Positions 1,434 to 59,560 are shown, counted from the first letter of the stretch. The stretch is 64,000 nucleotides of DNA from Candidatus Omnitrophota bacterium (GCA_003154195.1 PMCS01000006.1:17676-81675), one strand, 5' to 3'. The notes: generated by a model not told the origin, from the letters alone. Translations and numbers: made by a program.

Positions 1434-1617
1434 TTCATTCGCGTAAGCGAATGACAGTTATTTTTTTGCGCAGCAATCCCCGTTGGGGCAATAAAACTTG
1501 GCCTGCCGTAAACGGCAGGACTTAGTTTTATTGATTCGACTACAGCCTCAATCTGCGCTCGCTTGCGCGGTGCTTGATTTTGGCTAAGTCTCATTAAAAA
1601 ATAAAGGAGGTTGTCAG
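1434..1617. repeat. Mosaic structured repeat (CTCATTAA-terminated family) forming the whole metK upstream region
   Basis: Modules: hairpin cattcgcgtaagcgaatg; tttttttgcgcagcaatccccgttgggg; actacagcctcaatctgcgctcgcttgcgcg; ggctaagtctcattaaaaaat. The same modules recur at 5312, 11071, 34165, 44281, 51880, 54266 and 59428. Confidence 0.85.
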
Positions 1618-4302: not shown

Positions 4303-4352
4303 AATTTTTCGGGTGATAGTTATTTTTTTACGAAGTAAAAAAATAAAGTAAT

Positions 4353-5312
4353 ATGAAAATAAAACGTATCGGAGTCTTGACGAGGGATTGCGCCGGCGTA
4401 AATGCCTGTCTCAGGGCGATTGTCCGTACAGCGGCGTATCATAATATCGAAGTCATGGGCATCTTCCGGGGCTATGAAGGCCTGATGAATGACGATATGA
4501 AGATTTTTGACCGCCGTGCGGTTTCGGGAATAATAAATTTAGGCGGAACGATTTTGAAAACTTCCCGCGCGAAAAAATTCATGACCGGCCAAGGCCAGCG
4601 CCGCGCCGTAGCGGTCATCGAGCAGAATAACATCGATGGGCTTATCGTTGTGGGCGGCAACGGTTCGCTTGCCGGGGCGCATGTTTTAGCGGATAAATAT
4701 AATATTCCCGTCATCGGCGTTCCCGCGACCATCGACAACGATATCAATGGAGTGGAGATGTCGATTGGCGCGGATACGGCGATAAATGTTGCTCTCGATG
4801 CATTGGACAAAATCCGCGATACCGCGACATCGCTGGAGCGTATTTTTGTTGTCGAAGTTATGGGGCGCGATTGCGGGTTTATCGCTCTTCGGGCGGCATT
4901 GGCAGGGGGTTGCGAAGATGCTATAATCCCCGAGAAGAAATTCAGTATCGAAAAAATCGCCGAGGAGATTACCGAAGGCAATGTCCGCGGAAAAGTCAGC
5001 TGGATTGTGGTGGTTGCCGAAGGAAAAGCCAAAGCCGGCGTTATCGCCGGGCAAATTACCGGCCTTACGGGATTGGAAACCCGGGAGGTGGTCCTGGGCC
5101 ATATCCAGAGAGGCGGGATACCGACGGCGTTTGACCGGATTTTAGCGGCGCGTTACGGCAATTACGCCGTCGAATTATTAAAAAACGGGGAAAGCGGAAA
5201 GTGCGTTGCGATAAAAAATTATCAAATGTCGTCAGTTCCGCTGGCGCAAGCGATTAAGCATAAGGATATTCAAGCTGAAGATTACTATAAACTAATTAAG
5301 TTGTTGACTTGA
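4353..5312 (+). CDS. pfkA: ATP-dependent 6-phosphofructokinase
   Basis: MKIKRIGVLTRDCAGVNACLRAIV...VVGGNGSLAGAH...IDNDI motifs of PfkA. It is preceded by the short conserved leader ttttttacgaagtaaaaaaataaagtaatATG. Confidence 0.93.
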   Translation: MKIKRIGVLTRDCAGVNACLRAIVRTAAYHNIEVMGIFRGYEGLMNDDMKIFDRRAVSGIINLGGTILKTSRAKKFMTGQGQRRAVAVIEQNNIDGLIVVGGNGSLAGAHVLADKYNIPVIGVPATIDNDINGVEMSIGADTAINVALDALDKIRDTATSLERIFVVEVMGRDCGFIALRAALAGGCEDAIIPEKKFSIEKIAEEITEGNVRGKVSWIVVVAEGKAKAGVIAGQITGLTGLETREVVLGHIQRGGIPTAFDRILAARYGNYAVELLKNGESGKCVAIKNYQMSSVPLAQAIKHKDIQAEDYYKLIKLLT

Positions 5313-5413
5313 TTATTTTTTAAAATACCTTATACCCCCTCGCGTTGCTCGGGGGTAATTCGATTACAGCCTCACTGAGCGTGACATACACGCTCGTTCG
5401 GCTAAATCTCATT
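5312..5413. repeat. Mosaic repeat (CTCATTAA family, short form) abutting the aldolase-like start codon
   Basis: ccccctcgcgttgctcggggg hairpin; tacagcctcactgagcgtgacatacacgctc (7-bp stem); ggctaaatctcattATG. Same module order as 1434..1617 but with different, compensating stem sequences. Confidence 0.75.
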
Positions 5414-6823
5414 ATGATTTTTAAAAACGAAGAAGAAATTTTTCAGGAAGGTATCGTCGCTCAGGATAGCGGCAAGCTTGTGATCAAAGACCGGGATGTC
5501 TTTTGCGACCGGTTTATTGACGATATCGCCGACACTCTTGTTTTGAGCAATTCACGGGACACCAAAAGCGTATGCTATTGGATTGCTTACGAAGCGGCGT
5601 TGCAGTTTGGCATTTTTCCTTCTTCGATGCAGGGTCTTTATGAAGCGCGAGGCAGGAACGAGGTGGGCGGTTTTACCGTTCCGGCGATTAATTTAAGGAC
5701 GCTGGCCTATGATTTATCCCGGGCGGTATTCCGGTCGGCTAAAAAAATTAACGCTTCCGCCTTTATTTTTGAAATTACCCGGGGTGAAATTAATTATACC
5801 GAGCAGACGCCGGAGGAGTATTCAAGCGTTATCTTGCTTGCCGCGATTAAGGAAAATTACAGCGGCCCGGTATTCTTGCAAGGCGATCATTTTGAGATTG
5901 ACGCGGCAAATTATAACTACGATAAGAACCACGAAATCACCGCGATCAAGCAGCTGATTGAGGAAGCGGTCGGCGCCGCGTTCTATAATATCGATATTGA
6001 TTCCTCAACTTTAGTTGAGCTGGCAAAAGAAGATGTCGCCGCGCAACAGAGGCCTAATTATGAAACGTGCGCGTTCCTCACAAAGTTTATCCGCCAGATT
6101 CAGCCTTCCGGTATTTTCATTGCCGTGGGAGGCGAAATCGGCGAAATCGGCGGTAAGAATTCTACGCCGGAGGAATTAAACGTTTTTATGCAAGGTTATC
6201 TGGCTTGCCTTGAAGGGGTTAAGGGGATAACAAAATTGAGTATCCAAACCGGAGCGGTCAGCGGAGGAATCCCTTTACCGGACGGCGCCATCGCCAGAGC
6301 AAATATTGATTTCCAGATTCTGCGTGAGCTTTCGGAATTGGCCCGGCGCCAATACGGTTTATCGGGGTGCGTCCAGCAGGGCGCTTCTACCTTGCCCAAC
6401 GAGGCATTCCATAAATTTTCCGAAGTAGAATGTTCGGAGATACATTTAGCGACGCAGTTTCAAAATACCGTTTACGATTACCTGCCGATTTCCTTAAAAG
6501 AAAAAATTTATGATTGGCTGCACGATAACTATGCCCATGAACGCAAGGCCGGCCAGACCACCGACCAGTTTATCTATGTAACGCGTAAAAACGCATTCGC
6601 GCCGTTTAAGAAAGCTATTTTTTCTCTGCGCCGGGATTTAAAAAATCGAATATCAAAGGCGATGGAAGAGGAGTTTGATTTTTTGTTTGAGCAACTGCGG
6701 ATTAAAGATACGCGTACCATCGTAGAAAAATATATTAAACCCGTGGCCATTGAAAAAAATAAAGAAGATTTTACTTACGAAAAGGTTGGGCGAGATACGC
6801 CCGCCGAGCCGGAGTCCGAATAG
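5414..6823 (+). CDS. Class II aldolase-fold protein (fructose-bisphosphate aldolase class II / GatZ-KbaZ-like), divergent
   Basis: Start moved to the internal Met (track ORF begins 5345) because 5345-5413 is a repeat module. Motifs [24 protein letters not shown] and LATQFQN align to the class II FBA motifs DH, ELGxxGGEEDG, FHGGSG and TDTQ. Several Zn-ligand His positions appear substituted. Adjacent to pfkA. Confidence 0.55.
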
Positions 6824-8562: not shown

Positions 8563-8582
8563 GAATTTCTTTTTAGAGGATA

Positions 8583-8708
8583 TTAGGGGATTAGGATATC
8601 AGGATTTGGGGATTGGGAAATTAGTAGTGAACGGTAAAGAGGCGATAGCCGAATATCCCAATACCCTAATTTCCAAATCCTAATTTCCCGATATCCCAAT
8701 TTCCTTAA
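8583..8708. repeat. G-tract/C-tract imperfect hairpin element, family H copy 2, directly upstream of mreB
   Basis: ggggattaggatatcaggatttggggattgggaaatt ... aatttccaaatcctaatttcccgatatcccaatttcc. Related to the 371..474 element. Confidence 0.8.
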
Positions 8709-8787
8709 TTTAAGAAGGGAATTGTTTCCTTCGCTGCGGTTCGAAATGTTATTGACAATCGACAGCGCCTCTGTTATTATTTTCATA

Positions 8788-10258: not shown

Positions 10259-10978
10259 GTGATAAATACGAAAATCCCCAAATATACAATCGTAGCCTTG
10301 TTGCTTATCATCTGTACCCTGCCTTTTAGGAATTTTATCGAGGGCGCTTTTCTGTTTTTTTCCCGGCGGCTTATCGTTACCGGCCCGTATTCTTATCAGC
10401 TTAAATTTCAAGAAGCAAAAAGGCAGAACCTTGGTTTGATTATGCAAATCCGCCGGCTTCGTTATCTGCAAACCGAGAACGAACGTTTGCGTAAGGCCCT
10501 TCAATTTAAAGAGGCGCACGCGGCGGATTTAATCGAGGCCAATATAATTTCGTTTAACCCCTCAAGCTGGCGCCGGATCGTCAACGTTGATATCGGCAAA
10601 CGCGCGGGGGTAAAGGATGGCTTGCTGGCGGTAAATGAAGAAGGTTATTTTGTCGGTAAACTCGGCGAGGTCAGGAATAGTTATTCGCGCTTGATTCTTG
10701 CCGATGATGTCGATTGCTCGATACCGGTTTTTATCGGCGAGTCTTCTTACGGTTTGCTGAAGGGGGGATTAAAAGGGGCAAAGGTTTTCTATGTTGAAGC
10801 GGAAGATAAAATCGAAATGGGGCAAAAAGTTTGGATAAAACTATCCTCCCTATCGTTTCCGATTTATGTGGGCCGGGTCATTAAGGCTTCAAAAGATTCG
10901 GAAGGGTTATTCTGGGATATCAACGTGGAACTATCCGCCGGGAATCCGCTGCTGGGCGAAATCTTTATCCTGAAATAA
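10259..10978 (+). CDS. mreC: Rod shape-determining protein MreC
   Basis: GTG start. N-terminal TM helix, a coiled-coil (RRLRYLQTENERLRKALQFKE), then beta-rich domains SRLILADDVDCSIPVFIG. Position between mreB and mreD. Confidence 0.85.
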   Translation: MINTKIPKYTIVALLLIICTLPFRNFIEGAFLFFSRRLIVTGPYSYQLKFQEAKRQNLGLIMQIRRLRYLQTENERLRKALQFKEAHAADLIEANIISFNPSSWRRIVNVDIGKRAGVKDGLLAVNEEGYFVGKLGEVRNSYSRLILADDVDCSIPVFIGESSYGLLKGGLKGAKVFYVEAEDKIEMGQKVWIKLSSLSFPIYVGRVIKASKDSEGLFWDINVELSAGNPLLGEIFILK

Positions 10979-11040
10979 TTTTATCTTACGGTTTACCGTA
11001 AGATAAAATTATCGGCAAATCCGCCGGAGGCGGATTTGGA
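10979..11040 (+). terminator. Reusable terminator cassette: palindrome aattttatcttacggtttaccgtaagataaaatt + atcggcaaatccgccggaggcggatttgga
   Basis: Begins at the mreC stop codon. A near-identical cassette (variant first palindrome, identical second hairpin) follows the lipoprotein gene at 30976..31047. Confidence 0.6.
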
Positions 11041-11070: not shown

Positions 11071-11192
11071 TCATCCGCGCAAGCGGATGATGATTATTTT
11101 TTGCGGAGCTTCAAATCCCCTCCGGGGATAATTCGGCTGCCATCTCACGCTACGCGCTATCGCGCTTGCGTTCGATGAAGCCTCATTAATAA
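11071..11192. repeat. Mosaic repeat (CTCATTAA family) abutting the mreD start
   Basis: tcatccgcgcaagcggatga hairpin (covaries with cattcgcgtaagcgaatg at 1436); ttttttgcggagc; cccctccggggataattcggctgccatctcacg; ctacgcgctatcgcgcttgcg; gatgaagcctcattaataaATG. Confidence 0.85.
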
Positions 11193-14617: not shown

Positions 14618-14619
14618 AG

Positions 14620-14692
14620 AAAATTCCGTGCCGGAATTTTCTTTATGAAGGAAAAATACAGTCTGATGAAACGGCTGTATTTTTCTCGAAAT
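14620..14692 (+). terminator. Rho-independent terminator(s) after rodA (agaaaattccg-tgc-cggaattttct + ttat; second hairpin aaaatacagtc...ctgtattttt)
   Basis: Stem-loops followed by T-runs, seen directly. Confidence 0.7.
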
Positions 14693-14878
14693 CGAAGATA
14701 TTATTAGCTAAAATACTTCTTTTGCCAAATTTCCCATGTTATACGGACTCCGTATAATATGATATTACGAAGCAAAGACGGATAAATTAAATAAAAAAGT
14801 GCTATTTTTTGTATGAAAACGGTTTATTTTTGTTAAAATAATCATGGGTAACACAGAAAACACCGAATCCGTATATTA

Positions 14879-15120
14879 ATTGTTGCGCGAAATCCAAATA
14901 ATATAGAACCAGTATTTATTTCGCGCAACGCGGAGCTCAGGCTTCGCCGTTCCGCGCTTTGTCGCGCCTAAATTCAAAAATCGTACGCGCAACAAATCGC
15001 TACAGCGGAATACGCAAAATATAAGCAGGTAAATGCGCCACCTGTATTATCAAAGGAACGCGCACTTACCTGCCACCTACACTTTGCGTATTCCGCTGAG
15101 CTCCGCGTTATGCATAAATT
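14879..15120. repeat. Element A copy 1 (basic form, about 240 bp): 12-bp terminal hairpin gttgcgcgaaat...atttcgcgcaac, large inverted repeat cgcggagctcagg...cctgagctccgcg enclosing nested palindromes
   Basis: Internal palindrome cagcggaatacgcaaaatataagcaggtaa / ttacctgccacctacactttgcgtattccgctg. Two longer copies with a nested insertion are at 16612..17016 and 21062..21510. Confidence 0.9.
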
Positions 15121-15165
15121 AATACAAAAAATCAATCGAATCGAAAATAAAAAATAAAAAAATGT

Positions 15166-15190
15166 GTAGGGACAGGCCTAAGGCCTGTCC
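15166..15190. repeat. REP-like hairpin GTAG-GGACAGGCC-TAA-GGCCTGTCC, 22 nt upstream of the RAYT start
   Basis: 5' GTAG tetranucleotide followed by a perfect 9-bp palindrome. An exact inverted copy lies inside the RAYT ORF at 15496..15520. Confidence 0.8.
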
Positions 15191-15212
15191 AATACCAAAT
15201 ACCAAATAAAAA

Positions 15213-15788
15213 ATGACAAAAATATTAACACGCAAAGCGAATATACGTTTATCGGGATACGATTATACCCGATCAAATCATTATTACGTCACCGCCTGCA
15301 CCGAAAATAAACGCGAATGGTTCGGGGAAATTAAAAATAATGAAATGATATTGAATTCATACGGTAAAATCTGTTTAGAGCACCTGCAAAATCTGCCCGT
15401 TTATTATAAAAATATCAAAATTGATACGTTTGTAATTATGCCCAACCACTTTCATGCGATAATCATTATGCAAAATAATCAAATAAATCATAGCGGACAG
15501 GCCTTAGGCCTGTCCCTACATATATCGCAAAATAAATCATTGTCGAAAATTATCGGCGATTATAAATCGTTTTCTTCACGGGAAATTAATAAAATAACGG
15601 ACAATGGCCATAAATTCAAATGGCAACGCTCGTTTTATGACCACATAATCAGAAACGAAAAATCTCTGCGGAAAATCCGTGAATACATTACCAATAATCC
15701 CGTTGCCTGGGCGGAAGACGAGGAAAATATCAAGTGCATAACCATCAAATCCAGCCGACCTGAACCGTCCTGCTTCGCCCTTCGATAG
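15213..15788 (+). CDS. REP-associated tyrosine transposase (RAYT; IS200/IS605-like Y1 HuH transposase)
   Basis: HuH motif MPNHFHAII and catalytic Tyr context KWQRSFYDHIIRNE, about 67 aa apart. 191 aa, longer than IS200 TnpA and typical of RAYTs. Flanked by GTAG-type REP hairpins and element A copies. Confidence 0.8.
   Translation: MTKILTRKANIRLSGYDYTRSNHYYVTACTENKREWFGEIKNNEMILNSYGKICLEHLQNLPVYYKNIKIDTFVIMPNHFHAIIIMQNNQINHSGQALGLSLHISQNKSLSKIIGDYKSFSSREINKITDNGHKFKWQRSFYDHIIRNEKSLRKIREYITNNPVAWAEDEENIKCITIKSSRPEPSCFALR
15496..15520. repeat. Inverted copy of the GTAG REP hairpin (GGACAGGCCTTAGGCCTGTCC-CTAC), in frame inside the RAYT ORF
   Basis: Exact reverse complement of 15165..15190. Encodes SGQALGLSL in the RAYT reading frame. 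Confidence 0.8.
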
Positions 15789-15789
15789 G

Positions 15790-15850
15790 AAGTGGATAGC
15801 TTTGACGGGCTTCGCAGAGACAGGCCGGCACGAACGGTTCAGGCGGCTGA
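15790..15850. repeat. Inverted repeat gccgacctgaaccgtcc ... ggcacgaacggttcaggcggc just after the RAYT stop
   Basis: 10-bp arms cctgaaccgt / acggttcagg, seen directly. Confidence 0.6.
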
Positions 15851-15862
15851 TTATATTGTTAG

Positions 15863-16546
15863 ATGAAAATAAATATGAAAAATACATCACGAATAATCAT
15901 CTTTCTTCTTGTAGCGTCATCTGTTTTGCCATGTCGTGCAAAACAGATAAATGATCTTCGCCAAGCAGCCATTAATTATGTTGTTGCCGAACATGGACCG
16001 CAAGCAATGGGCATGAAGGAAATTTCATCAGGACAACAGAAAGGCCTAATCGTAACCGTCGAGAAACCACAGTCAAATGACAAGGCCATGTATTGGGTGA
16101 CATTTGAAGAGTCAACGCCCGTATACGCTGGAAAACCACGACCGCAAGAGAAACAGAATCTGCTTCATGCGCTTAGAATTATCGGTCCCGAATTCAGAGG
16201 CGTGTATAACGAGCGCTTGTCGGACGAAGAATTCCAGGCATTATCCGCACTGAAATCACCAAGGGATATCTTGGTTCGGGAGCCGATCGCGCAGGCGATC
16301 ATAAAAGAAAAGGTGTTACCGGGGATTGCCAGAGAATTGCAGGAAGGTCAGTTTTTCGCCAGAGAAACAGAAGCCCACTATTTTATCTTTGACTTTAGCA
16401 CAATGTCGAATAGGGGTCTAACTGGGGTCACTGTATTAGTTGATGAAGATGGGACCGTTATAACGAAATATGAACATATTGCACCAGATGATCTAGCAGC
16501 TAACAAGCCGAATGAAAAAACTACGGGAACAAGCACTGAAAGCTGA
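15863..16546 (+). CDS. Hypothetical secreted protein (signal peptide; possible lipoprotein)
   Basis: N-terminal MKINMKNTSRIIIFLLVASSVLPC signal. Nothing in the sequence indicates a function. Lies in the low-GC island. Confidence 0.55.
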   Translation: MKINMKNTSRIIIFLLVASSVLPCRAKQINDLRQAAINYVVAEHGPQAMGMKEISSGQQKGLIVTVEKPQSNDKAMYWVTFEESTPVYAGKPRPQEKQNLLHALRIIGPEFRGVYNERLSDEEFQALSALKSPRDILVREPIAQAIIKEKVLPGIARELQEGQFFARETEAHYFIFDFSTMSNRGLTGVTVLVDEDGTVITKYEHIAPDDLAANKPNEKTTGTSTES

Positions 16547-16555
16547 AAATAAATT

Positions 16556-17016
16556 TAATATCTAACAATTTCATCCAGCGGACTTTGCCTGCGGCAAAAC
16601 CGCTGATTATTATGTTGCGCGAAATCCAAATAATATGGAATCAGTATTTATTAATGAGACTTCGCCGAATGAACGCGCGCAGCGCGTTCGGTGAGGCGGT
16701 AGTGAAACTTATCCCGCCGTATTCGGCGGGATGTAGTTGAACTATCCCCGCAGGGGGTAGTCGAATTAGCGCAACGCGGAGCTCAGGCTTCGCCGTTCCG
16801 CGCTTTGTCGCGCCTAAATTCAAAAATCGTACGCGCACGATACACCTTAATGTAAGTATTCGGTAAGTCCCGCTGAACCGTAGAGGTGAAGCGGGGACAA
16901 ATCGCTCCAGCAGAATACGCAAAATGTAAGCAGGTAAATGCGCCGCCTGTATCATTCAAAGGAACGCGCACTTACCTGCCACCTACACTTTGCGTATTCC
17001 GCTGAGCTCCGCGTTA
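16556..17016. repeat. Terminator cassette T1 (16556-16611) plus element A copy 2 with a nested reverse-oriented CTCATTAA-family insertion
   Basis: T1 is atctaacaatttcatccagcggactttgcctgcggcaaaaccgctgattatt. A2 begins gttgcgcgaaatccaaataatatggaatcagtatttatt. An inserted segment ttaatgagacttcgccg...gggatagttcaactacatcccgccg follows, then the cgcggagctcagg...ctgagctccgcgtta body. The antisense ORF 16641..16955 is repeat-derived. Confidence 0.9.
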
Positions 17017-17049
17017 GATGTAAAATATAAATAAAACGGGGCGCAAAAA

Positions 17050-18105
17050 ATGGAAAATGTAAAAAAGGTCATAATCGCATTGTTTGGGTATATATACTTC
17101 CTGCAAGGAATGTGCATAATTATCATGCATACCGCTATCTGGACGGTCAGACCGGATTTTCAATATGCATTGAGCACAGGTACGGGCATAGCATTATTGT
17201 GCACGGCAATCGGGCTGTTCAGGTTAAAAGAATTGGCGAGGAAAATCACGATTATTTTAAATATTTTCTTCCTGATTAACACGTGGCTATCCATTTTTTC
17301 GATGTATAAGATAGTGTCAACGGGAAATGGCTGGCTATGGGCTATATGGCATAATATTTGTTTTATTTTGCCGATTTATTTTTTCACTCGACCCGGGATA
17401 AAAGAACAATTCAGAATAAATCCCGCATCAACGCAATTCCCTGGCCCCGCTCCCGCGGCTGATCCTTTAGACACAAATGAAGGCCAAAAACCAATTTCAG
17501 CATGGTTATCTTTAGTATTCCTTATATTACCGTTTGCAGTGGTTATACCTTATTGGTTATTGTCCCCTTCCCCGAAGATCAATTTTTTCAGTGTGCTATT
17601 CATTATTTTCATTTTTACATCATCCATAATCGCCGCTATATCTTTCATAATGATAGCGTTTATCCGCAAAGAAAAGCCGCTACGATTCTTTCGATTGGTA
17701 CTATGGGCAAATATCATTGTTATCGGCTCAATAGTCGCCAACCTATACCTTGCAGGCCAAAAAACAAAAGAAATAGAAGAGCGAGTAACCCGTGAGGTGG
17801 AAAACCGTGATCCAGTTATAATCGCTTTCCGCAAACAGAAAATCGTCCCTCTCATGGTTACCTATTTCGACCTTGCGTGCTTTGAAGCTGAAGATAAATA
17901 CCCTCTTGATAATCAGGCGATAGAAAGAAAGAAAAAACTCGCGTTAAATGCCATTATAAACCATATCGACCGTAACGATTATACCGAATATATATTTAGT
18001 CGCAGCCACCCGGAAAGTATTTTTTATATCAAAACAACTTATAATGGATATAGAAAATTAAAACATAATCTCTATGTAAAATTTATAAACCTAGTTAACG
18101 AATAA
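17050..18105 (+). CDS. Hypothetical polytopic membrane protein with about 120-aa cytoplasmic C-terminal domain
   Basis: 351 aa with multiple hydrophobic segments. No family recognised from the sequence. Low-GC island gene. Confidence 0.6.
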   Translation: MENVKKVIIALFGYIYFLQGMCIIIMHTAIWTVRPDFQYALSTGTGIALLCTAIGLFRLKELARKITIILNIFFLINTWLSIFSMYKIVSTGNGWLWAIWHNICFILPIYFFTRPGIKEQFRINPASTQFPGPAPAADPLDTNEGQKPISAWLSLVFLILPFAVVIPYWLLSPSPKINFFSVLFIIFIFTSSIIAAISFIMIAFIRKEKPLRFFRLVLWANIIVIGSIVANLYLAGQKTKEIEERVTREVENRDPVIIAFRKQKIVPLMVTYFDLACFEAEDKYPLDNQAIERKKKLALNAIINHIDRNDYTEYIFSRSHPESIFYIKTTYNGYRKLKHNLYVKFINLVNE

Positions 18106-18202
18106 GCCGGACCAGGAACTTAAAATTAAACAAAAAGAAATCCAGGGTTTATCACCAAAAAAACTACGGGGTCAAACACTGAAAGCTGAAAAGAAAATAA
18201 AA

Positions 18203-18260
18203 CATCTAACAAACTAATCCAGCGAGATCTCGCCAAGGGCGGACCGCTGATTTTTGTGTT
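18203..18260 (+). terminator. Terminator cassette T2 (atctaacaaactaatccagcgagatctcgccaagggcggaccgctgatttttgtgtt)
   Basis: Stem followed by a T-run. A second copy is at 22069..22135. Confidence 0.55.
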
Positions 18261-18285
18261 ATAATAAAAAGAATAGAGAAAAATT

Positions 18286-19047
18286 ATGAAAAACATTTTT
18301 TGGGCTGTAATTCTCATCGGTGTTTTCTTTGTAACATCTCCCGTCATGGCGAATCAGGACGTTTATAACAGTTTACAATCTACTTTAATTTTAGTGGGTG
18401 AATATACCGGTAATAAAAATTACGATACCGATGCTCATGCTTGGCGTCTTGATTACAAAGTGATAACCATTCTGCAGAATAGCAACAATTCGAACCCAAT
18501 CTATTTTATAACACATTTCTTCAGTATGGATTGTAAACCAGGTCGCATTATTACGGTAAGAGGAATAGTGGATTGGAATAAGGAGAACGCGGAAAAAACC
18601 GAGATAAACAGCCGCTGGATTCTGTTTTTGGAAAATAAATACAATATTAAATACAATAAATACGCCGATTATCCTGGATCGTATCACAGTTTAAGAATCC
18701 CCGCAAGTCAGAATAACATGGATAAAATAAAAAAAGAAATGGAGATTAAAAAAAATCTATATTCCAAATCCTGCGATCAGCTGTCAAAACTCTGGAAAGA
18801 CAATTATAAAAAATTAGACAAAAGCTGTTCAAACGACAGCGATTGCATGAAAAGACCGTCTGCTGATTGCGGAAGAGACTGCATCAACAATATAAACGCA
18901 AACAATGCCGCGATCGAGGAAATGTGTTGGAAACTAGATGGTGCTCGTATAGACAAAGGCTGCATCCCCCAGGGTGAGTGTTCCCCTTATATAACTGAAT
19001 GTAAATGCGTAGACAAACAATGTTCCGCGATAGAGAAAAAGCCTTAG
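18286..19047 (+). CDS. Hypothetical secreted protein with Cys-rich C-terminal domain
   Basis: Signal peptide MKNIFWAVILIGVFFVTSPVMA. The C-terminal 90 aa contain 13 Cys (CSNDSDC, CGRDC, CIPQGEC, CKCVDKQC). AT-rich codon usage. Confidence 0.6.
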   Translation: MKNIFWAVILIGVFFVTSPVMANQDVYNSLQSTLILVGEYTGNKNYDTDAHAWRLDYKVITILQNSNNSNPIYFITHFFSMDCKPGRIITVRGIVDWNKENAEKTEINSRWILFLENKYNIKYNKYADYPGSYHSLRIPASQNNMDKIKKEMEIKKNLYSKSCDQLSKLWKDNYKKLDKSCSNDSDCMKRPSADCGRDCINNINANNAAIEEMCWKLDGARIDKGCIPQGECSPYITECKCVDKQCSAIEKKP

Positions 19048-19161
19048 ACGTAAGCGAGCTAAACGAAAGACGGTTATAACAACGCGCTGCAGGCGACAAA
19101 ACCTGCGGTTTTGCGCCTGAGCTTGGATGTTATGGTTAAAAATATTAGGAGGAATTTATAT

Positions 19162-19800
19162 ATGGCTAGTTTGGAAAAATCGGGATTAGAAATTGTCGCC
19201 AAATTAATGTCAATATCTGCTAGGACCGCTCCAAAGTCCGGCGGTATTGACCATGTACATATAATGGTTGCGTCTTCCAGTAAACAAAAATCTATCGCTG
19301 GCATGATGAAAAAAGTTGCAGAACAAATTTGTCAAAAATTACCAAATAGCAAGCTTGGAAATGCAATAAAAGAAGATTGGGAAAGTGATGCCAGTAGTAT
19401 CATAGAATCCGGCCTTCTGGTGCTAATAGGAGTTGAAGGTAGAAAAGCAATAGGTCTGAATTGTGGAGGATGTGGATTTTCTACCTGTTCAGAAATGTTA
19501 AAACATCGTCGAATTTCCTTAACAGAACATAGTCTTATTGGTCCTTATTGTATTTTTAAAGTAATGGATTTAAGTATTGCGTCAGCATCAGCAGTTAAAA
19601 CTGCAATGGAACACAATGTTGATAACCGTATGATGTATAAAGCAGGAGTTGCGGCTTTAAAATTAGGTATTTTAAATCCATGTGATTTAATAATGGGCAT
19701 ACCGCTATCAGCGACAGGAAAAAATATTTATTTTGATAGAACAGATAAACTTGATGCATGGAAGGTAATCAAATCGAATAAAAATAATAAAGAACCATAA
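19162..19800 (+). CDS. Hypothetical protein with a CGGCGFSTC Cys motif (possible metal/Fe-S binding)
   Basis: Start set at the ATG 9 nt after SD aggagg (track ORF begins at TTG 19111). Motif NCGGCGFSTC plus distal C residues. Resemblance to DUF2148-type ferredoxin-domain proteins is a recollection. Confidence 0.5.
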   Translation: MASLEKSGLEIVAKLMSISARTAPKSGGIDHVHIMVASSSKQKSIAGMMKKVAEQICQKLPNSKLGNAIKEDWESDASSIIESGLLVLIGVEGRKAIGLNCGGCGFSTCSEMLKHRRISLTEHSLIGPYCIFKVMDLSIASASAVKTAMEHNVDNRMMYKAGVAALKLGILNPCDLIMGIPLSATGKNIYFDRTDKLDAWKVIKSNKNNKEP

Positions 19801-19851
19801 CAATTTCATCCAGCGGATTTTGCCTGCGGCAAAACCGCTGATTATTGTGTT
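19796..19851 (+). terminator. Terminator cassette T1 copy 2 (ataacaatttcatccagcggattttgcctgcggcaaaaccgctgattatt)
   Basis: 13-bp stem cagcggttttgcc with a one-base bulge, then a T-rich tail. Near-identical to 16556..16611. Confidence 0.6.
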
Positions 19852-20202
19852 ATGCAAATATTAATAATTATACTGATAATTGTCGGGCTAATTGCAATTG
19901 GCAATATTTATAGTTTCATAAAATATTTAAATGCCGCAACGGAGCATGAAAAACAGGAAAACTATAAAGAAGCTTGTTTTTCATATTCTCAGCTTTTATT
20001 GCACTCTTTGTTCTCGAAAATCCACGGAACATATTACAAAATGAAAATTCAATCGTTGTGGAATACCAATGGTCCTTTTGATTATGAATATAAATACAAC
20101 AATATCATACAAAACAGAGAAGATACCGGTGACAACGAAATAGAATTAAGAGATACCATACAATACATTGGTAAAATTGTTGACGAAAATAAAAATGCAT
20201 AA
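19852..20202 (+). CDS. Hypothetical small membrane-anchored protein
   Basis: N-terminal TM helix MQILIIILIIVGLIAIGNIY. No SD, and the start overlaps the T1 cassette, so the start is uncertain. Confidence 0.4.
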   Translation: MQILIIILIIVGLIAIGNIYSFIKYLNAATEHEKQENYKEACFSYSQLLLHSLFSKIHGTYYKMKIQSLWNTNGPFDYEYKYNNIIQNREDTGDNEIELRDTIQYIGKIVDENKNA

Positions 20203-20270
20203 CAACTCCTTTCAGCGTACGTCAGGGCTGCGCCCTGCCACCGCTGAAGCCGATGTTATAGGAGGGAAAA

Positions 20271-20912
20271 ATGCGGAAATTATTTTTAGCGATTATCTTT
20301 TCTTTATTTTGGCCGGGAGCAACTGGTCCTTATATTCTTTATGCGCAGTCAACAGAGCTTTCCCAGGATAAAAACGGAAATCTTGAACTTCACGTGGTAA
20401 CAGATGAAAACGTTGATATCAAGGTGTTTATTGATGATAAGCTTGCGGTGGACGAACAGTTTCACAAACAGCGAGAAAAATATTCTATAGGAATTGCTCC
20501 ACATAAGGTATTTTGTTTTAATCTTCAACCGGGCAAACATACGCTGTGGGCTGAGGCCAACCCGGGAAAACAGAGTTTTGCGGGTGAGTTTGAAATAAGG
20601 GATAAAGGAGTTGTGATAACACAAAGCTTCGGCCTATTCAATGTTGGCGCCGAGACCGTATTCGACGACTTAATAAAGAACGGCTATATTGACGTTAATG
20701 GTATAATCCGGGAAAAGTTTAAACAGATTGCAGAGTACTCCCAAATGAAGTTAAGCCAAGACTATCGCGACTGGGAAAAACAAAAGATTTATAACATTTT
20801 GCGACAGAGCGATAAACGATGGCTTTCGCTTAGTTACGTTGATCCTCAACGGATAAAGCAAAAGGAACAATTTACTTTGGAAGCGTACGATTGGCAGATT
20901 ATGTATCAATGA
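20271..20912 (+). CDS. Hypothetical secreted protein
   Basis: SD ggaggg 6 nt upstream. Signal peptide MRKLFLAIIFSLFWPGATGPYILYA. No recognisable domain. Confidence 0.6.
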   Translation: MRKLFLAIIFSLFWPGATGPYILYAQSTELSQDKNGNLELHVVTDENVDIKVFIDDKLAVDEQFHKQREKYSIGIAPHKVFCFNLQPGKHTLWAEANPGKQSFAGEFEIRDKGVVITQSFGLFNVGAETVFDDLIKNGYIDVNGIIREKFKQIAEYSQMKLSQDYRDWEKQKIYNILRQSDKRWLSLSYVDPQRIKQKEQFTLEAYDWQIMYQ

Positions 20913-20994
20913 TTGCCTTCGCCGGATAACTCGACTGTGATTTTATTAAAAAATAAAGAAGAACACCCAAGAAAACAAAATTTGGGAAAAAAAC

Positions 20995-21510
20995 CCTATA
21001 ACAAATCAATCAACCGGACTTTTTCGCGGCTTTTTAAAGCCGCTCAAAAGCCGGTTATTTCTATGTTGCGCGAAATCCAAATAATATAGAATCAGTATTT
21101 ATTAATGAGACTTCGTCGAACGAACGTGCGAAGTGCATTCAGTGAGGCGGTAGTGAAACTTATCCTGCCGTATTCGGCGGGATGTAGTTGAACTATCCCC
21201 GCAGGGGGTAGTCGAATTAGCGCAACGCGGAGCTCAGGCTTCGCCGTTCCGCGCTTTGTCGCGCCTAAATTAAAAAATCGTACGCGCACGCGAAGCACCT
21301 TAATGTAAGCATGCAGCGAGTCCCGCCGTAGGCGGGGACAAATCGCTTCCGCCAAAAACAAGATACGGCGGACAGGCCATCGGAAATCGCGTATAAGTAC
21401 GCGGATAAACCTGCCACCTATATCATTTAATAGTAAGCAGGCTTATCCGCTACCTTGATAGCGCAATGGAGTTTATCCTGAGCGAAGTCGAAGGGCTGAG
21501 CTCCGCGGTA
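20995..21510. repeat. Hairpin module (ccggactttttcgcggctttttaaagccgctcaaaagccgg) plus element A copy 3 (longest, about 450 bp)
   Basis: Begins gttgcgcgaaatccaaataatatagaatcagtatttatt + ttaatgagacttcgtcg..., with the same body as copy 2 plus extra internal sequence, and ends ctgagctccgcggta. The antisense ORF 21092..21361 is repeat-derived. Confidence 0.9.
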
Positions 21511-21598
21511 GAACTATATGAAAAATAAAGTCGTAAATTTTACCGCAAAAACACAGCAAATATGTTATAATTTAGCCAAGAACATAGGAGGAATAAAA

Positions 21599-21778
21599 AT
21601 GAGCCCAATAAAATTAGAAGCAAAAAAATTGATCAGCCGTTTACCGGACAGCGCGACATGGGACGACATACTTTACGAATTCCATGTTAAAAGGAAAATC
21701 GATATTGCCCTCGATGCTGTAAAGAGTGGCAAAATTATTTCTCACGAACAAGCTAAAAAGCGCCTGTTATCAAAATGA
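21599..21778 (+). CDS. Type II antitoxin (putative addiction-module antitoxin partner of the ParE/RelE toxin)
   Basis: SD aggagg. 59 aa (MSPIKLEAKKLISRLPDSATWDDILYEFHVKRKIDIALDAVKSGKIISHEQAKKRLLSK). ATGA overlap with the downstream toxin. Confidence 0.65.
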   Translation: MSPIKLEAKKLISRLPDSATWDDILYEFHVKRKIDIALDAVKSGKIISHEQAKKRLLSK

Positions 21779-22068
21779 CAATACTCTGGTCAGAGCCATC
21801 CATTTCGGATTTAAAAAATATTAAAGACTATATCGCCAAAGACTCCCCTTATTATGCCGCCATCTTTATTGAAAAAATAATTACCGCCGTCGAAAAACTT
21901 GCCACCCTTCCACTCGTCGGACGCATCGTTACTGAATGTAACGACAAACACATAAGAGAAGTAATATATCAACACTACCGAATAATTTACAAAATTAATC
22001 ATAAAGCCCTCATCATCTTAACCGTGGTGCATGGCGGCCGTGATTTGTCCGGCTGGGCTAAAAAATAA
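21775..22068 (+). CDS. ParE/RelE-family type II toxin
   Basis: 97 aa with the typical ParE-like pattern ...YYAAIFIEKIITAVEKLATLPLVGRIV...REVIYQHYRIIYKI...ILTVVHGGRDL. Confidence 0.75.
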   Translation: MTILWSEPSISDLKNIKDYIAKDSPYYAAIFIEKIITAVEKLATLPLVGRIVTECNDKHIREVIYQHYRIIYKINHKALIILTVVHGGRDLSGWAKK

Positions 22069-22135
22069 TCAAATTGCTAACCGATCAATCCAGCGAGATC
22101 TCGCCAAAGGCGGACTGCTGATTTATGCGTTGCGC
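22069..22135 (+). terminator. Terminator cassette T2 copy 2 followed by a truncated element-A start (gttgcgcgaaat)
   Basis: aatccagcgagatctcgccaaaggcggactgctgatttatgcgttgcgcgaaat. Confidence 0.55.
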
Positions 22136-22248
22136 GAAATATAATTACTAAAGGTGATCATGTAATGGAGAAATCTCGGCTTCTACTAAAAGAAGTATTT
22201 TCTATCCGCGAAGCGGGCGGCATTTATTTTTTACGGAGTAAAAAATAA

Positions 22249-23877: not shown

Positions 23878-23962
23878 GTAGGGGCAGGGTCACCCTGCCC
23901 GGATAAACAATCGATAATTTTCGCCAAATAAAATAATCGGGCGGGGAAACCCAGCCCCTACA
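23878..23962. repeat. REP doublet (BIME-like): GTAG-gggcagggtcaccctgccc ... gggcggggaaacccagcccc-CTAC in inverted orientation
   Basis: GTAG/CTAC termini and GC-rich palindromes seen directly. Same GTAGGG type as the hairpins flanking the RAYT. Confidence 0.7.
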
Positions 23963-23993
23963 ATCTTTTCGTGGTTAACCTGATAAATTTTAC

Positions 23994-27509: not shown

Positions 27510-27699
27510 TTTTTAAATAAACGTTCCGGCTGTTTTTGCCATCCTGTTTCAGGCAAAAAAATTTTTACATTGTATACTTTTCACACAATACATCTACAAA
27601 AATTATCTTAACAACATTTGATTGCACTTGCAAGAAATTTTTTAATGAGCGCATTATTTTTTCTAGTGTACTCACGACGAAAAAATAATAGCGCGAATT

Positions 27700-27960
27700 A
27701 TCCAAAACCGTAGGCGCGCTTAGAGCGCGACTTCAGGTTTTGGGTAATGAGGCTTCGCCGAAATCAAGCGCGAAGCGCGCAGGTTGAGGCGGTAGCCGAA
27801 CTTCCCGCCTGCGCTTCACTCGGCGGGATCACGCTTCCTTGATATAACCATATTAGGAAGGCGGTGAACCTCGAGCGAGGAGCGAAGCGACGAGTCGAGG
27901 GATAATGAGCCTTAATTTTTTTCCGCCTATGGCGGGAAAAAAATCCAGGTCTTATTAATA
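27700..27960. repeat. Mosaic repeat (reverse-oriented modules of the CTCATTAA family) in the polyamine-operon upstream region
   Basis: ccgtaggcgcgcttagagcgcgac; taatgaggcttcgccg; the reverse complement of 27780-27870 matches the ggttcaccgcc..cccgccgag..gcaggcgggaa module at 34220 and 51940; ttttttccgcctatggcgggaaaaaaa hairpin. Confidence 0.8.
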
Positions 27961-30516: not shown

Positions 30517-30978
30517 ATGGCAAAGAAAATATTTCTAGCTGTCGCGGTGGTTTTATTTCTTGCTGGTTGCGGTACCGGCAAAAAGATAAACGTTTTGGAG
30601 ACAAAAGTCGATTCCCTGGAAGGTAAGATTAATTCCGTGGAAGGGCGTCAGAGTTCTATCGAGACACAGGCGGGGGATTCGCGGGAATCTATCGGTTATG
30701 TAAAAGGAAAAGTCGATGGTATGCCCAAGGGCCCTTCGACGGTAGTCGTTACCGGCTCCCAGGGCAATAACGGCGGTTTTTCCGGTAAAAAACGGTTGAC
30801 TAACAAGGAAATCCAAACTACGTTGAAAGACGCCGGTTATTATTCCGGGAATATCGATGGAAAACTCGGTAAAAATACTAAAAAGGCGATAAAGGAGTTC
30901 CAGAAAGCAAATGGTTTGAAAGTCGACGGCGTAGCCGGCGACGCGACAATGAGCATGCTGTCGCAATACCTTAAATGA
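30517..30978 (+). CDS. Lipoprotein with C-terminal peptidoglycan-binding domain (PG_binding_1-like)
   Basis: Lipobox LAGC. The C-terminal LKDAGYYSGNIDGKLGKNTKKAIKEFQKANGLKVDGVAGDATMSML matches the peptidoglycan-binding repeat. Start set at the Met after ggtgga. Confidence 0.7.
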   Translation: MAKKIFLAVAVVLFLAGCGTGKKINVLETKVDSLEGKINSVEGRQSSIETQAGDSRESIGYVKGKVDGMPKGPSTVVVTGSQGNNGGFSGKKRLTNKEIQTTLKDAGYYSGNIDGKLGKNTKKAIKEFQKANGLKVDGVAGDATMSMLSQYLK

Positions 30979-31047
30979 ATTTATCCTACGGCAAGCCGCA
31001 GGATAAATTCATCGGCAAATCCGCCGAGGCGGATTTGGAAAAACTCA
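30976..31047 (+). terminator. Terminator cassette (palindrome tgaatttatcctacggcaagccgcaggataaattca + atcggcaaatccgccgaggcggatttgga), second copy
   Basis: Same two-hairpin architecture and identical second hairpin as 10979..11040. The first palindrome differs but keeps its pairing. Confidence 0.6.
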
Positions 31048-31301
31048 AGAAACTTCGGTCTCACCGAAGGTGAGGCCTCACAACTACCATAAAAAATAAG
31101 GATTATGCCTTATTGATAGGGTAAGTAATCTTCGAAAGGCTGCGTATCTTAATCTTGCCTTTGATGATGCCGATTGCCGCATAAAAATTTTCATAATCGT
31201 TTTCCTGCAAGAAAAAATTTATCTCGTAATTATTATTTTGGGGGTTGACTTTTATCTCCGAAATGGACCGATGTTATTTTTTTTACGGAGTAAAAAATAA
31301 A

Positions 31302-34164: not shown

Positions 34165-34440
34165 TTCCGGGGGGTGAATTTATTTTTTGCGCAGTAAACC
34201 CCCTCGCTAACGCTTCAGGGGTTCACCGCCTCCCTGATAATTATATCAAGGAAGCGGGATCCCGCCGAGTGAAACGCAGGCGGGAAATTCGACTACCGCC
34301 TCGTCTGGCGACCCCGCCATCCCATAGATGGCGAGGTCTCGTCAATTCGTTTAACGAATTGACGGACTTCAGGCTTGATAATTCAACTAAGCCCTGGGTA
34401 CCGGGCTAGTTTCATTACGGCGAAGTCTCATTAATAATTT
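34165..34440. repeat. Mosaic repeat (CTCATTAA family, long form) inserted between the hyfC-like and hyfE-like genes
   Basis: ggggg...tttattttttgcgcagtaaaccccc; ggggttcaccgcctcc; gcgggatcccgccgag; gcaggcgggaaattcgac; ggataattcaactaagccctgggtaccgggctagtttcattacggcgaagtctcattaataatttATG. Confidence 0.85.
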
Positions 34441-42491: not shown

Positions 42492-42564
42492 GCCGACGTA
42501 GCTCAGTTGGTAGAGCAGCTCATTCGTAATGAGCAGGTCGAAGGTTCGACTCCTTTCGTCGGCT
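42492..42564 (+). tRNA. tRNA-Thr (anticodon CGT)
   Basis: Acceptor stem GCCGACG/CGTCGGC, D-arm TAGCTCAGTTGGTAGAGCA, anticodon stem-loop GCTCA-TTCGTAA-TGAGC, T-arm GAAGG-TTCGACT-CCTTT. No encoded CCA. Confidence 0.9.
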
Positions 42565-44280: not shown

Positions 44281-44500
44281 ATTTTATTTTTTGCGCAGCA
44301 ATCCCCGTTGTTGGGGATAATTCGACTATCCCCTACGGGGATAGTTCAACTAAAGACATTTGTTGCGGCTTCGCCACACAAATGTCTAAGTTTCACTACA
44401 GCCTCAATCGGCGTCCCCCTTGCGCGGGGCTTGTAATGAAACTTGCCCCGGGGCACCGGGCTTAGTTTCATTATCGGCTAAGTCTCATTAAAAGAAAATT
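44281..44500. repeat. Mosaic repeat (CTCATTAA family, long form) forming the purN upstream region
   Basis: ttttattttttgcgcagcaatccccgttgttgggga; ggataattcgactatcccctacggggatagttcaactaa; gacatttgttgcggcttcgccacacaaatgtc; tttcactacagcctcaatcggcgtcccccttgcgcggggc; gaaacttgccccggggcaccgggcttagtttcattatcggctaagtctcattaaaagaaaattATG. Confidence 0.9.
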
Positions 44501-51879: not shown

Positions 51880-52134
51880 CATCAGCGAAGCTGATGAGCA
51901 GATATTTTTTTACGCAGTAAACCCCTCCACCGATGTTCCGGGGTTCACCGCCTTCCTAAAATTAATATATCGAGGAAGCGGGATCCCGCCGAGTCGCTAC
52001 TCAGACGCAGGCGGGAAATTCGGCTATCCCCTTACGGGGATAATTCAACTAAGCCCGGGGTACCGGGCAAGTTTCATTACCACCTCGTGCTACGCCTTTC
52101 GGACTTGCGCTCGGTTAAGCCTCATTAAAAATAT
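51880..52134. repeat. Mosaic repeat (CTCATTAA family, long form) abutting the purU start
   Basis: atcagcgaagctgat; tttttttacgcagtaaacccctcc; ggggttcaccgccttcc; gcgggatcccgccgag; gcaggcgggaaattcggctatccccttacggggataattcaactaagcccggggtaccgggcaagtttcattac; cttgcgctcggttaagcctcattaaaaatatATG. Confidence 0.9.
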
Positions 52135-54265: not shown

Positions 54266-54353
54266 ATCCCCGCCCTTTTTTACCGATGAATAATCGATTA
54301 AGGTATAAAAGGGCGGGGTTAATTCGGCTGCCATCTCACGAGAAGCCTCATTA
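54266..54353. repeat. Mosaic repeat (CTCATTAA family, short form) upstream of the por operon promoter
   Basis: ccccgcccttttttaccgatgaataatcgattaaggtataaaagggcgggg hairpin + ttaattcggctgccatctcacgagaagcctcattaaaaa. Shares ggctgccatctcacg with 11130. Confidence 0.8.
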
Positions 54354-54360
54354 AAAATAA

Positions 54361-54389: not shown

Positions 54390-54476
54390 AAAGCTTCGTT
54401 TTTTATATAATCTTAAAAAATTGCCGGTTTCAACCGGTGATTGGTATTTATTTTTTGCGGAGCAAAAAAGAAACAT

Positions 54477-59427: not shown

Positions 59428-59560
59428 TTTAATGAGACTTCGCCGATAATGAAACTTGCCCGGTACCCCGGGCTTAGTTGAATTATCCCCGCAAGGGGAT
59501 AGGCGAAGGGTGATGAGTTCGAAGTTTCACCAAATGCCCGACGGCATTACCGGCAGGCAT
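59428..59560. repeat. Mosaic repeat (CTCATTAA family) in reverse orientation, serving the minus-strand PpiD-like gene
   Basis: Reverse complement reads cgcctatccccttgcggggataattcaactaagcccggggtaccgggcaagtttcattatcggcgaagtctcattaa. Nearly identical to the module at 52040-52090. Confidence 0.85.

Follow-up and report, generated by a model that had tools for sequence, protein, structure and literature searches.

Correia elements (NEMIS) of Neisseria and ERIC elements of enterobacteria and Yersinia have terminal repeats of about 26 bp or more and one fixed body, and Correia elements carry a TA duplication, a site for integration host factor (IHF), and documented promoters. MIRU (mycobacterial interspersed repetitive units) are direct tandem repeats with short open reading frames (ORFs) for translational coupling, located between operon genes and touching stop and start codons, and pneumococcal BOX elements have a modular A-Bn-C structure with long (45–59 nt) modules of conserved sequence and stable folds near genes. 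Here, we describe a family of structured intergenic repeats, made up of TC-box units and an AT-rich palindrome (TM), in a 64,000-nt stretch of a Candidatus Omnitrophota genome (GCA_003154195.1, PMCS01000006.1:17676-81675; the whole stretch is hereafter called the window). The nearest known system, used here for comparison, is that of REP, BIME, and REPIN sequences with their REP-associated tyrosine transposases (RAYT) in E. coli, Pseudomonas, and Stenotrophomonas (PMC2817692, PMC3733652, PMC3479197). In REPs, the palindrome carries an unpaired GTAG (or CGTC) tetranucleotide on one side, and most REPs are located downstream of genes, where the ORFs are unidirectional or convergent (PMC3733652). 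The RAYT gene is flanked by two inverted cognate REPs with which it co-evolves (PMC2817692).

Like REP/BIME sequences, the elements are short, GC-rich extragenic palindromes at high density (16 units and nine TMs in 64 kb) arranged in mosaic arrays with linker motifs; they are species-specific, have conserved stem mismatches, and are probably handled as folded single strands. However, the conserved part of the TC-box family is the box (TAAT-TC-N4 / N4'-TC-ATTA) and not the hairpin, and there is no unpaired GTAG/CGTC tag; GTAG is present on the complement in about half of the boxes, base-paired and 3' of the hairpin. Additionally, the repeats do not flank RAYT, are nested rather than alternating in orientation, and are found next to gene starts, also in divergent gaps, instead of at 3' ends or in convergent gaps. 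Features that the family shares with miniature inverted-repeat transposable elements (MITEs) are terminal inverted repeats with 10-nt arms and eight covarying pairing positions, imperfect owing to a fixed TC×TC mismatch, and presence or absence at homologous sites (paralogous block A vs. blocks B and C; syntenic junctions in relatives). The family resembles Correia and ERIC in its MITE-like imperfect palindromes near genes, co-transcription, folding via inverted ends, and orientation-dependent effects on mRNA, but differs in its 10-nt ends with an obligatory 2×2 mismatch, its variable modular body, and the lack of an evident promoter. The helix-mismatch-helix box and the nesting distinguish it from MIRU and BOX. 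With attC sites it shares two paired boxes, an unpaired spacer, a variable cap, shape recognition, one better strand, and a site just upstream of the next ORF; however, it has neither the RYYYAAC...GTTRRRY core nor extrahelical bases, its boxes are 4+4 bp instead of about 7+7 bp, and the flanking genes are conserved core genes. Because the GTAG tag, RAYT flanks, attC core, and long terminal repeats are all missing, it is a member of no named family. It is a new variant among bacterial small palindromic repeats, whose closest analogues are REP/BIME mosaics, Correia/ERIC MITEs, MIRU, BOX, and, in architecture only, attC.

We interpret these sequences as lineage-specific, non-autonomous, hairpin-forming intergenic repeats of the MITE/REP/BIME type that invaded the once very short gene junctions of one Omnitrophota lineage, where they are co-oriented with the genes and were co-opted as leader, a reading to which we assign a probability of roughly 0.6. 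The initial annotation of the window had proposed a modular mobile family of this type, which is supported insofar as the repeats are modular, structured, and lineage-specific.

Architecture and covariation of the repeat family

The terminal motif RRGYCTCATTAA has nine exact matches in the window, compared with 0.05 expected in 64 kb, and none of 100 shuffles reached nine. All nine copies listed in the initial annotation were found again, and two of the exact matches, on the minus strand at 16651 and 21102, are additional to that list; the fba and polyamine copies carry the variant terminal motifs AAATCTCATT, AAGCCTCATTAC, and GCGCTCATTAA. When the copies are read side by side, four conserved 10–12-nt linkers appear in invariant order, L1 (TAATTCGRCTA), L2 (TARTTCAACTA), L3 (AAGTTTCAYTA), and L4 (AAGYCTCATTAA), separated by variable GC-rich hairpins with an inter-linker spacing of 5 to >80 nt. 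Only L1 and L4 are present in metK, fba, mreD, por, and two polyamine-region copies; all four are present in hyfE-like, purN, purU, ppiD, and both cassette copies. The reusable modules named initially are also real, and both GGATAATTCAACTAAGCCCGGGGTACCGGGC and TACAGCCTCA plus a hairpin recur among copies; however, the initial view of a single element had fused two distinct ones, the TM palindrome and the TC-box units. That they constitute a real, structured, lineage-specific repeat family is very likely.

Each linker is built as half-TC-half, and the linkers form imperfect inverted repeats, L1 with L4 (TAAT-TC-GACT / AGTC-TC-ATTA) and L2 with L3 (TART-TC-AACT / AGTT-TC-AYTA), which fold into nested helices P1 (L1:L4) and P2 (L2:L3) capped by a variable hairpin. 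Within each helix, TC faces TC in an invariant mismatch (TC×TC), and the complementary strand has a tandem G·A at this place. The resulting TC-box unit, [TAAT-TC-N4]-variable GC hairpin(s)-[N4'-TC-ATTA], is ~35–170 nt long and stands alone or nested. The four-linker element is a unit inside a unit, hence the nested L1-L2-L3-L4 arrays; at purN, the second unit harbors a third in one of its hairpins, now a perfect palindrome (TAATGAAACTT...AGTTTCATTA), and on metagenome locus L041 a unit has undergone tandem duplications. An alternative pairing, in which adjacent linker halves close each hairpin, was rejected in favor of nested L1:L4 and L2:L3, as L2 covaries with L3 and not with L1.

A structure-aware pattern ([TAAT-like]-TC-N4 ... 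revcomp(N4)-TC-AYTA) recovered 16 distinct units in the window vs. 0.11 in shuffles. The 4-bp inner box is Watson-Crick throughout in 17/17 copies despite four different sequences (GACT, GGCT, GATT, and GCGC; permutation p < 5e-5), and TAGT/TAAT in L2 covaries with ACTA/ATTA in L3 in 8/9 copies (p = 0.012). In an alignment of the 16 simple units, 97.5% of the box cells are paired, both sides change in four of eight pairs, and the box covariation score is 0.402 vs. 0.220 in shuffles (0/500); when the partner is shifted by 1–3 columns, pairing falls to 9–55%. The compensatory changes noted initially are thus real, and stronger than had been seen. With RNA parameters, the fold of the gene-sense strand is less stable than that of its complement in 18/20 units, by a mean of 4 kcal/mol (14/20 with DNA parameters), mainly because TC×TC turns into tandem G·A on the complement. 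Of the single stem mismatches, written in sense-strand letters, nine are A·C and two G·T, small numbers that go in the same direction as the fold asymmetry. The part made up of the TM and its associated hairpin (hpT) has the opposite tendency, the sense strand being stronger in 8/12.

The TM is a 25–27-nt AT-rich palindrome, TTATTTTTT-RCGNAGY-AAAAAATAA, with a GNA loop closed by a C-G and a covarying R-Y pair. Its T-run plus RCGVAG pattern (TTTTTTRCGVAG) was found nine times vs. 0.33 expected, on the plus strand only, and the TM pattern is confined to this species' contigs among 111 loci. The TM usually has a GC hairpin on its 5' side (CATCCGC-GAA-GCGGATG, or a variant of it carrying compensatory changes), and the hpT GC hairpin and TM T-run together score as terminator-like. 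Intact TMs abut the start codons of pfk, a radical-SAM gene, and yebC (in the adjacent genome); those of the hyfB-like gene and porG abut starts that are likely the true ones. At metK, mreD, hyfE, purN, and purU, TC-box arrays sit between the TM loop and the A-rich 3' arm, which is still beside the ATG (Table 1).

Table 1. Coordinates of composites, TC-box units, intact ("empty") TMs, and paralogous cassette sites in the window.
Feature	Coordinates	Strand	Description
metK composite	1435..1605	+	hpT 1435-1454; TM 5' arm + GCGCAGCAA loop 1458-1476; two hairpins; unit; TM 3' arm AAAAAATAAA
metK TC-box unit	1532-1596	+	TGAT-TC-GACT ... AGTC-TC-ATTA; composite followed by Shine-Dalgarno AAGGAGG, ATG 1618
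"Empty" TM (pfk)	4320..4346	+	TTATTTTTTTAC-GAA-GTAAAAAAATAA, 6 nt before pfk ATG
fba composite	5313..5414	+	Occupies entire pfk-fba gap: T-run, hairpin, unit; no Shine-Dalgarno
fba TC-box unit	5356-5414	+	TAAT-TC-GATT ... AATC-TC-ATTA; final A of unit is the A of ATG
mreD composite	11071..11192	+	hpT 11071-11090; TM 5' arm + GCGGAGC; hairpin; unit 11129-11188 (GGCT/AGCC)
"Empty" paralogous site	14917..14922		Flanks contiguous: TATTTAT-TTC-GCGCAAC
Cassette four-linker element	16652..16768	-	P1 unit 16652-16768 around P2 16700-16744; in repeated cassette-array block; "filled" site
Paralogous cassette element	21103..21219	-	94% identical to 16652..16768 copy including flanks; nested unit 21151-21195
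"Empty" TM (radical-SAM)	22224..22248	+	TTATTTTTTAC-GGA-GTAAAAAATAA, directly against radical-SAM gene ATG
Polyamine-operon (pot) composite	27643..27915	-	Divergent intergenic region; units 27745-27803 (GGCT/AGCC), 27643-27700 (GCGC/GCGC)
Polyamine composite, further parts	27643..27915	-	TTCACCGCCTTCCT module + further L4-like end; ~130 nt upstream of ATG 27509
"Empty" TM (hyfB-like)	31274..31301	+	Abuts likely true start (31302) of hyfB-like gene
hyfE-like composite	34165..34440	+	TM 5' arm 34183; TTCACCGCC module; P1 unit 34285-34433 around P2 34379-34417
purN composite	44281..44500	+	TM 5' arm 44287; P1 unit 44318-44490 around P2 44342-44398; palindromic further unit inside
purU composite	51880..52134	+	hpT; TM 5' arm 51906; TTCACCGCC module; P1 52016-52127 (GGCT/AGCC) around P2 52041-52079
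por composite	54266..54354	+	Hairpin + minimal unit 54320-54353
"Empty" TM (porG)	54447..54473	+	3 nt before likely true porG start (54477)
ppiD composite	59429..59520	-	Degenerate L1; P2 unit 59447-59485; after L4, Shine-Dalgarno AGGAG, ATG 59414

Larger composites also contain a two-hairpin module, TTCACCGCCTYCCT...AGGAAGCGGGATCCCGCC...GGCGGG, always just 5' of L1 (27855-27868 on the minus strand, 34222-34235, and 51944-51957; also in L041 and at 4363-4690 of L109, in the adjacent genome), in which anti-Shine-Dalgarno-like CCTCC/CTTCCT is paired with AGGAAG. Among the Rfam 15 covariance models, only tRNA-Thr exceeded the gathering thresholds in the window, and no match with E<=1 overlapped any element; a literature search with the motif strings returned unrelated primer matches only and no paper with the motifs in a relevant context. 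Apparent similarities with the anticodon loop of initiator tRNA, tRNA T-loops, C/D boxes, K-turns, CsrA sites, an IHF site, and the circovirus nonanucleotide did not hold against the sequences.

Probable insertion at gene junctions

Three Omnitrophota relatives keep the gene order ruvC-ruvA-scpB-metK-ahcY-pfk-fba-ilvD-mreB-mreC-mreD-pbp2-rodA with short junctions. The scpB-metK junction measures 14, 30, and -1 nt in the relatives and 228 nt in the window; the pfk-fba junction measures 22, 80, and 18 nt, with a GGAGG-type Shine-Dalgarno (SD) sequence, vs. 101 nt in the window, all of it element and with no SD; and mreC and mreD overlap by 4 nt (ATGA-type) in the relatives vs. lying 214 nt apart in the window. 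An SD is present at 15/16 non-overlapping junctions in the relatives. The initial claim that native junctions had been replaced is therefore borne out, since the syntenic relatives have short SD-bearing (0–30 nt) or overlapping junctions at the same places. No units or TMs were found in the three syntenic relatives or in four RAYT-bearing Omnitrophota loci (about 110 kb of other Omnitrophota loci), and the elements are thus gains in this lineage.

A presence/absence comparison was also positive within the window, in a repeated cassette-array block. Two repeat families, D5 and D3, adjoin at 14920 and are 113 nt apart at 16652/16766 and 21103/21217, and the intervening 113 nt are exactly an L4-to-L1 element. 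According to the repeat table and direct reading of the three paralogous blocks, block A is empty and blocks B and C are filled; the unit is a discrete insertion. The insertion junction is ambiguous within ~3 nt (TTC in the empty site vs. TA...TA in the filled ones). On the strand where the unit reads TAATGAG..., most copies have TTATTT(T) or a close variant as the 5' flank, a base composition that suggests a preference for AT-rich targets. Overall, spread through DNA-level insertion is probable.

Outside the window, MetK was found unchanged on several metagenome contigs (wood and peat samples), and homologues of FBA are all from Candidatus Omnitrophota, the nearest being 63% identical. Strain-level contigs (L001-L006 and L069) are identical or differ by homopolymer errors only, and are hence uninformative. 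The window species apparently lies outside the GTDB representative set, and an exact L1-L2-L3 scan of GTDB genomes gave one true match, in an Omnitrophota metagenome-assembled genome (MAG; L007), and one chance match. Among the 91 metagenome loci matched by an L3-L4 scan, the only true members are L018, L041, L042, and L069, the remainder being chance matches or coding repeats. The L042 copy was considered as an mreD orthologue and rejected, as the flanking proteins are unrelated; it is merely another copy. In the AT-rich MAG L007 (5400-5486, minus strand), L4 overlaps the ATG of a 21-codon ORF whose stop overlaps the next start (ATGA), and this short upstream ORF may serve translational coupling to the next gene.

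Gene starts, orientation, and competing explanations

Five genes lacking an SD have L4 close before the start codon, as initially claimed, at distances of 0 (fba), 3 (mreD), 6 (hyfE-like), 9 (purN), and 6 nt (purU); at metK and ppiD, an SD is still present after L4 and before the ATG. Gene calls and an N-terminus similar to those of relatives confirm the start of fba. By a crude count, an SD is present at only about 40% of window starts. Where it abuts the start, the element must belong to a read-through or longer transcript, since L4 is too near the ATG for a promoter plus leader, and in that positional sense it replaces the native 5' untranslated region or intercistronic spacer. The stretch from the last stable helix to the AUG is rich in A and U (CUCAUUAA + A/U), and the outer box, weak and made up of AU pairs only, should open readily, which fits SD-independent initiation. 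Longest-ORF starts extend into the repeat elements, ahead of downstream ATGs, at fba (5345/5414), ilvD (6844/~6934), hyfB-like (31245/31302), and porG (54441/54477); from alternative gene calls on sister contigs and the TM position, the downstream ATGs are probably the true starts, the mis-calls at fba, hyfB-like, and porG being due to the repeat elements.

All 10 non-cassette composites in the window and 9.5 kb of adjacent genome point at a downstream gene start. Three face minus-strand genes (pot, ppiD, and a GGDEF gene on L109), two of them (pot and L109 GGDEF) in confirmed divergent gaps, and there is no composite in the window's three convergent gaps. The sole independent exception is the cassette-array insertion (two paralogous copies), which points the other way.

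In the insertion reading that we favor, TC-box units would insert as discrete DNA into AT-rich sequence, often the A-rich TM arm and sometimes another unit, and repeated insertion into units would give rise to the nested L1-L2-L3-L4 arrays. Mobilization may proceed via a folded single DNA strand, antisense to the genes, through some enzyme. Beside start codons, only insertions with the weaker-folding strand transcribed would persist, which would explain the fixed orientation. The inserted element would then simply be leader or intercistronic sequence within the RNA, with its last bases and A-rich flank providing an unstructured AU-rich stretch 3' of a stable hairpin, from which SD-less genes may be translated.

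Several points weigh against this reading. The single empty/filled comparison shows no clean target-site duplication, and the unit ends cannot be fixed to the base; the empty site carries TTC where precise excision would leave TA or nothing, and the comparison represents one insertion event in a duplicated block. The orthologous comparison rests on relatives no nearer than 63% (FBA), with none at 70–95% identity. The distant Omnitrophota contigs L007 and L018 have single copies with all four linkers conserved, which could reflect functional constraint rather than mobility. No transposase was identified for the TC-box family, the sole candidate in the window, RAYT, having different cognate repeats. 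Finally, the steps of translation and of selection on orientation are ones that we infer only.

The repeats might instead be a functional leader or intercistronic RNA module, kept, whatever its origin, for SD-independent initiation and/or mRNA stabilization, with closing helices that hold the flanks such that the upstream stop or a GGAG loop stays near the downstream AUG. Several observations are consistent with this: L4 or the TM 3' arm lies 0–9 nt from five SD-less starts, four further "empty" TMs abut ATGs, strong SDs are present at the same junctions in relatives, orientation always follows the gene, the T-run and A-run are able to close the whole array, GGAG is displayed in the TM loop at the radical-SAM, hyfB-like, and porG genes, and the three non-Watson-Crick box positions are G·T on the sense strand. 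However, the sense strand is the weaker fold in 18/20 units, with the mismatch being U·C/C·U in RNA, and GGAG has decayed to GCAG in four of five unit-split TMs. The por, pot, and L109 GGDEF elements are 67–133 nt from the ATG and probably outside the leader, with a promoter-like site in between at por and weaker promoter-like hexamers, seen by eye only, in the GGDEF and pot flanks; additionally, the cassette copies point the other way, and about 60% of window starts lack an SD anyway (a crude count). We therefore consider this explanation unlikely. The related proposal in the initial annotation, a conserved cis-regulatory leader RNA as the origin of the family, is likewise unlikely given element-free orthologous junctions in relatives and the weaker fold of the mRNA-sense strand.

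A further candidate is a REP/BIME system mobilized by the RAYT encoded at 15213-15788. This protein matches Pfam Y1_Tnp (PF01797, 1.9e-8) and, among NCBIfam models, REP_Tyr_transpos (6e-20; 71.6 bits, slightly below the cutoff of 80) far better than IS200 (1.6e-3), has E. coli TnpA-REP (4ER8) as its best PDB match, contains the HUH motif HFH and a candidate catalytic Tyr, and has homologues called RayT by JGI. No other transposase or recombinase, and no integrase, was found among window-encoded proteins. The units, as GC hairpins with conserved mismatches, are of the kind that Y1 enzymes prefer, their strand asymmetry suits a single-strand substrate, and about half of the boxes read GTAG on the complement. 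However, the repeats that accompany RAYT itself are different: a canonical hairpin with a GTAG tag, GTAGGGACAGGCC-TAA-GGCCTGTCC, lies at 15166-15190 (plus strand), 23 nt upstream of the RAYT start, and an inverted copy at 15495-15519 (minus strand) falls within the ORF, where it encodes ...GQALGLSL..., after the HUH motif and before the C-terminal half; the pair brackets just the first ~95 codons. The same pair and arrangement accompany RAYT homologues at 64–68% identity in three loci (L105, L106, and L108), and in a fourth (L107), in which the homologue lies after rodA as in the window, the repeats are only downstream of its gene; TC-box units were not found in L105-L108. Because RAYT has GTAG repeats of its own, the TC-box family is not its cognate REP as described in PMC2817692 and PMC3733652. 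The GTAG of the units is, moreover, paired and 3' of the hairpin and not an unpaired 5' tag, and the units' absence from convergent and presence in divergent gaps is opposite to the REP distribution in PMC3733652. Mobilization by this RAYT is thus improbable.

The initial annotation also suggested that a Correia-like MITE delivers outward promoters to the downstream gene. The hpT and T-run are terminator-like within former operons, so that genes such as mreD might need a new promoter, and TTATTTT resembles a -10 element, paired at pfk with TTGACA 18 nt upstream. Nevertheless, a consensus scan detected no sigma-70-like site within the elements of metK, fba, or mreD, although the consensus may differ from Omnitrophota promoters, and at por and ppiD the promoter-like sites are outside the element, which ends 6 nt upstream of TTGACA-17-TACAAT (54361-54389) at por and lies in the leader, downstream of TTTACA-18-TATAAT (59603-59574), at ppiD. 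With L4 0–9 nt from the ATG, there is no room for a -10 and a leader, and linker spacing varies from 5 to >80 nt. Promoter delivery by the element, as in a Correia-like MITE, is very improbable. Finally, attC-like folded sites for an integron-type or other site-specific recombinase are very unlikely: the order of outer box, unpaired spacer, inner box, and variable terminal structure, with structure kept while sequence varies, a better-folding strand antisense to the genes, and an attC-like cassette array in the same window are suggestive, but the RYYYAAC/GTTRRRY core, extrahelical bases, and a window integrase are all lacking, and the flanking genes are syntenic core genes.

Neighboring repeats and significance

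The cassette copies lie in a 7.6-kb low-GC block (14618-22248; GC 0.36–0.41) of short plus-strand ORFs that is inserted between rodA and the radical-SAM gene, two direct neighbors in relatives. Imperfect palindromes of 72 nt (D2 repeats at 16545, 18189, 19780, and 22060) separate these ORFs and are attC-like in their TCTAAC...GTT core, their unpaired spacer, and a single bulged base, and the block looks like an integron-type cassette array without an integrase in the window; among its cargo are RAYT, a DUF2148 protein, and a ParE toxin preceded by a small ORF. Further on, after the radical-SAM gene and ahead of the next ORF (23878-23976), is a REPIN-like inverted pair of GTAG hairpins (GTAGGGGCAGGGTCACCCTGCCC ... 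GGGCGGGGAAACCCAGCCCCTAC), which belongs to a GTAG REP family distinct from the TC-box units.

Other intergenic repeats were also observed. A 58-nt repeat (79% identical; 10969-11026 and 30969-31026), located right after the stops of mreC and a peptidoglycan-binding protein gene, consists of an AT-rich hairpin (TTTATCTTACGG...CCGTAAGATAAA) followed by ATCGGCAAATCCGCCG and is probably another portable terminator-like module. The metK-ahcY gap (2755-2968) contains ATCTGCGATCATCTG and GATTATCTG repeats, and as the same motif is present in the ahcY-pfk gap (4507-4650) of the 63%-identity relative L100, this family is more widespread in the phylum than the TC-box units. Long inverted repeats of short GGGATT/GGAATT-like units upstream of scpB (339-483) and mreB (8563-8721) represent a third intergenic repeat type. 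At 42545-42707, a ~125-nt insert lies behind tRNA-Thr(CGU), and after it the last 17 nt of the tRNA are present once more (GACTCCTTTCGTCGGCT); a homologous insert after tRNA-Met(CAU) in the adjacent genome (L109, 5984-6140) terminates in a duplicate of the 3' end of tRNA-Met; both inserts share TCGTTnGTTGT, CTCATCG, CCTAATACATT, and GCCTTCGG. A small element that duplicates 17–18 nt of whichever tRNA receives it is unusual.

It is conceivable, although doubtful, that TM and units together constitute a mobile "gene-start cassette," comprising a hairpin that resembles a terminator, an AT-rich leader, and a region for SD-independent initiation, that replaced SD-based and overlap-coupled initiation at a large fraction of genes in one Omnitrophota lineage, with the units moved as folded single strands by an enzyme reading the helix-tandem-G·A-helix box. 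If so, the units would represent a new type of structured substrate for recombination or transposition, separate from REP/RAYT, IS200/IS605 ends, and attC. Small palindromic repeats are well known; unusual here are the clean box, the nesting, the strict association with gene starts, and the large-scale displacement of SDs in an uncultured phylum. The box itself, a helix, an obligatory 2×2 mismatch, and a covarying helix under any hairpin cap, provides a clean, testable motif for a single-strand-specific enzyme in a phylum without a cultured model. For annotation, start codons in such genomes are liable to mis-calling, as at fba, hyfB-like, and porG. In a compact, operon-dense genome, gene junctions can evidently be rebuilt by small repeats, and hairpin arrays with AU-rich tails before genes that are translated via a strong SD or overlap in relatives are a natural experiment on SD-independent initiation and on the tolerance of operons for insertions.

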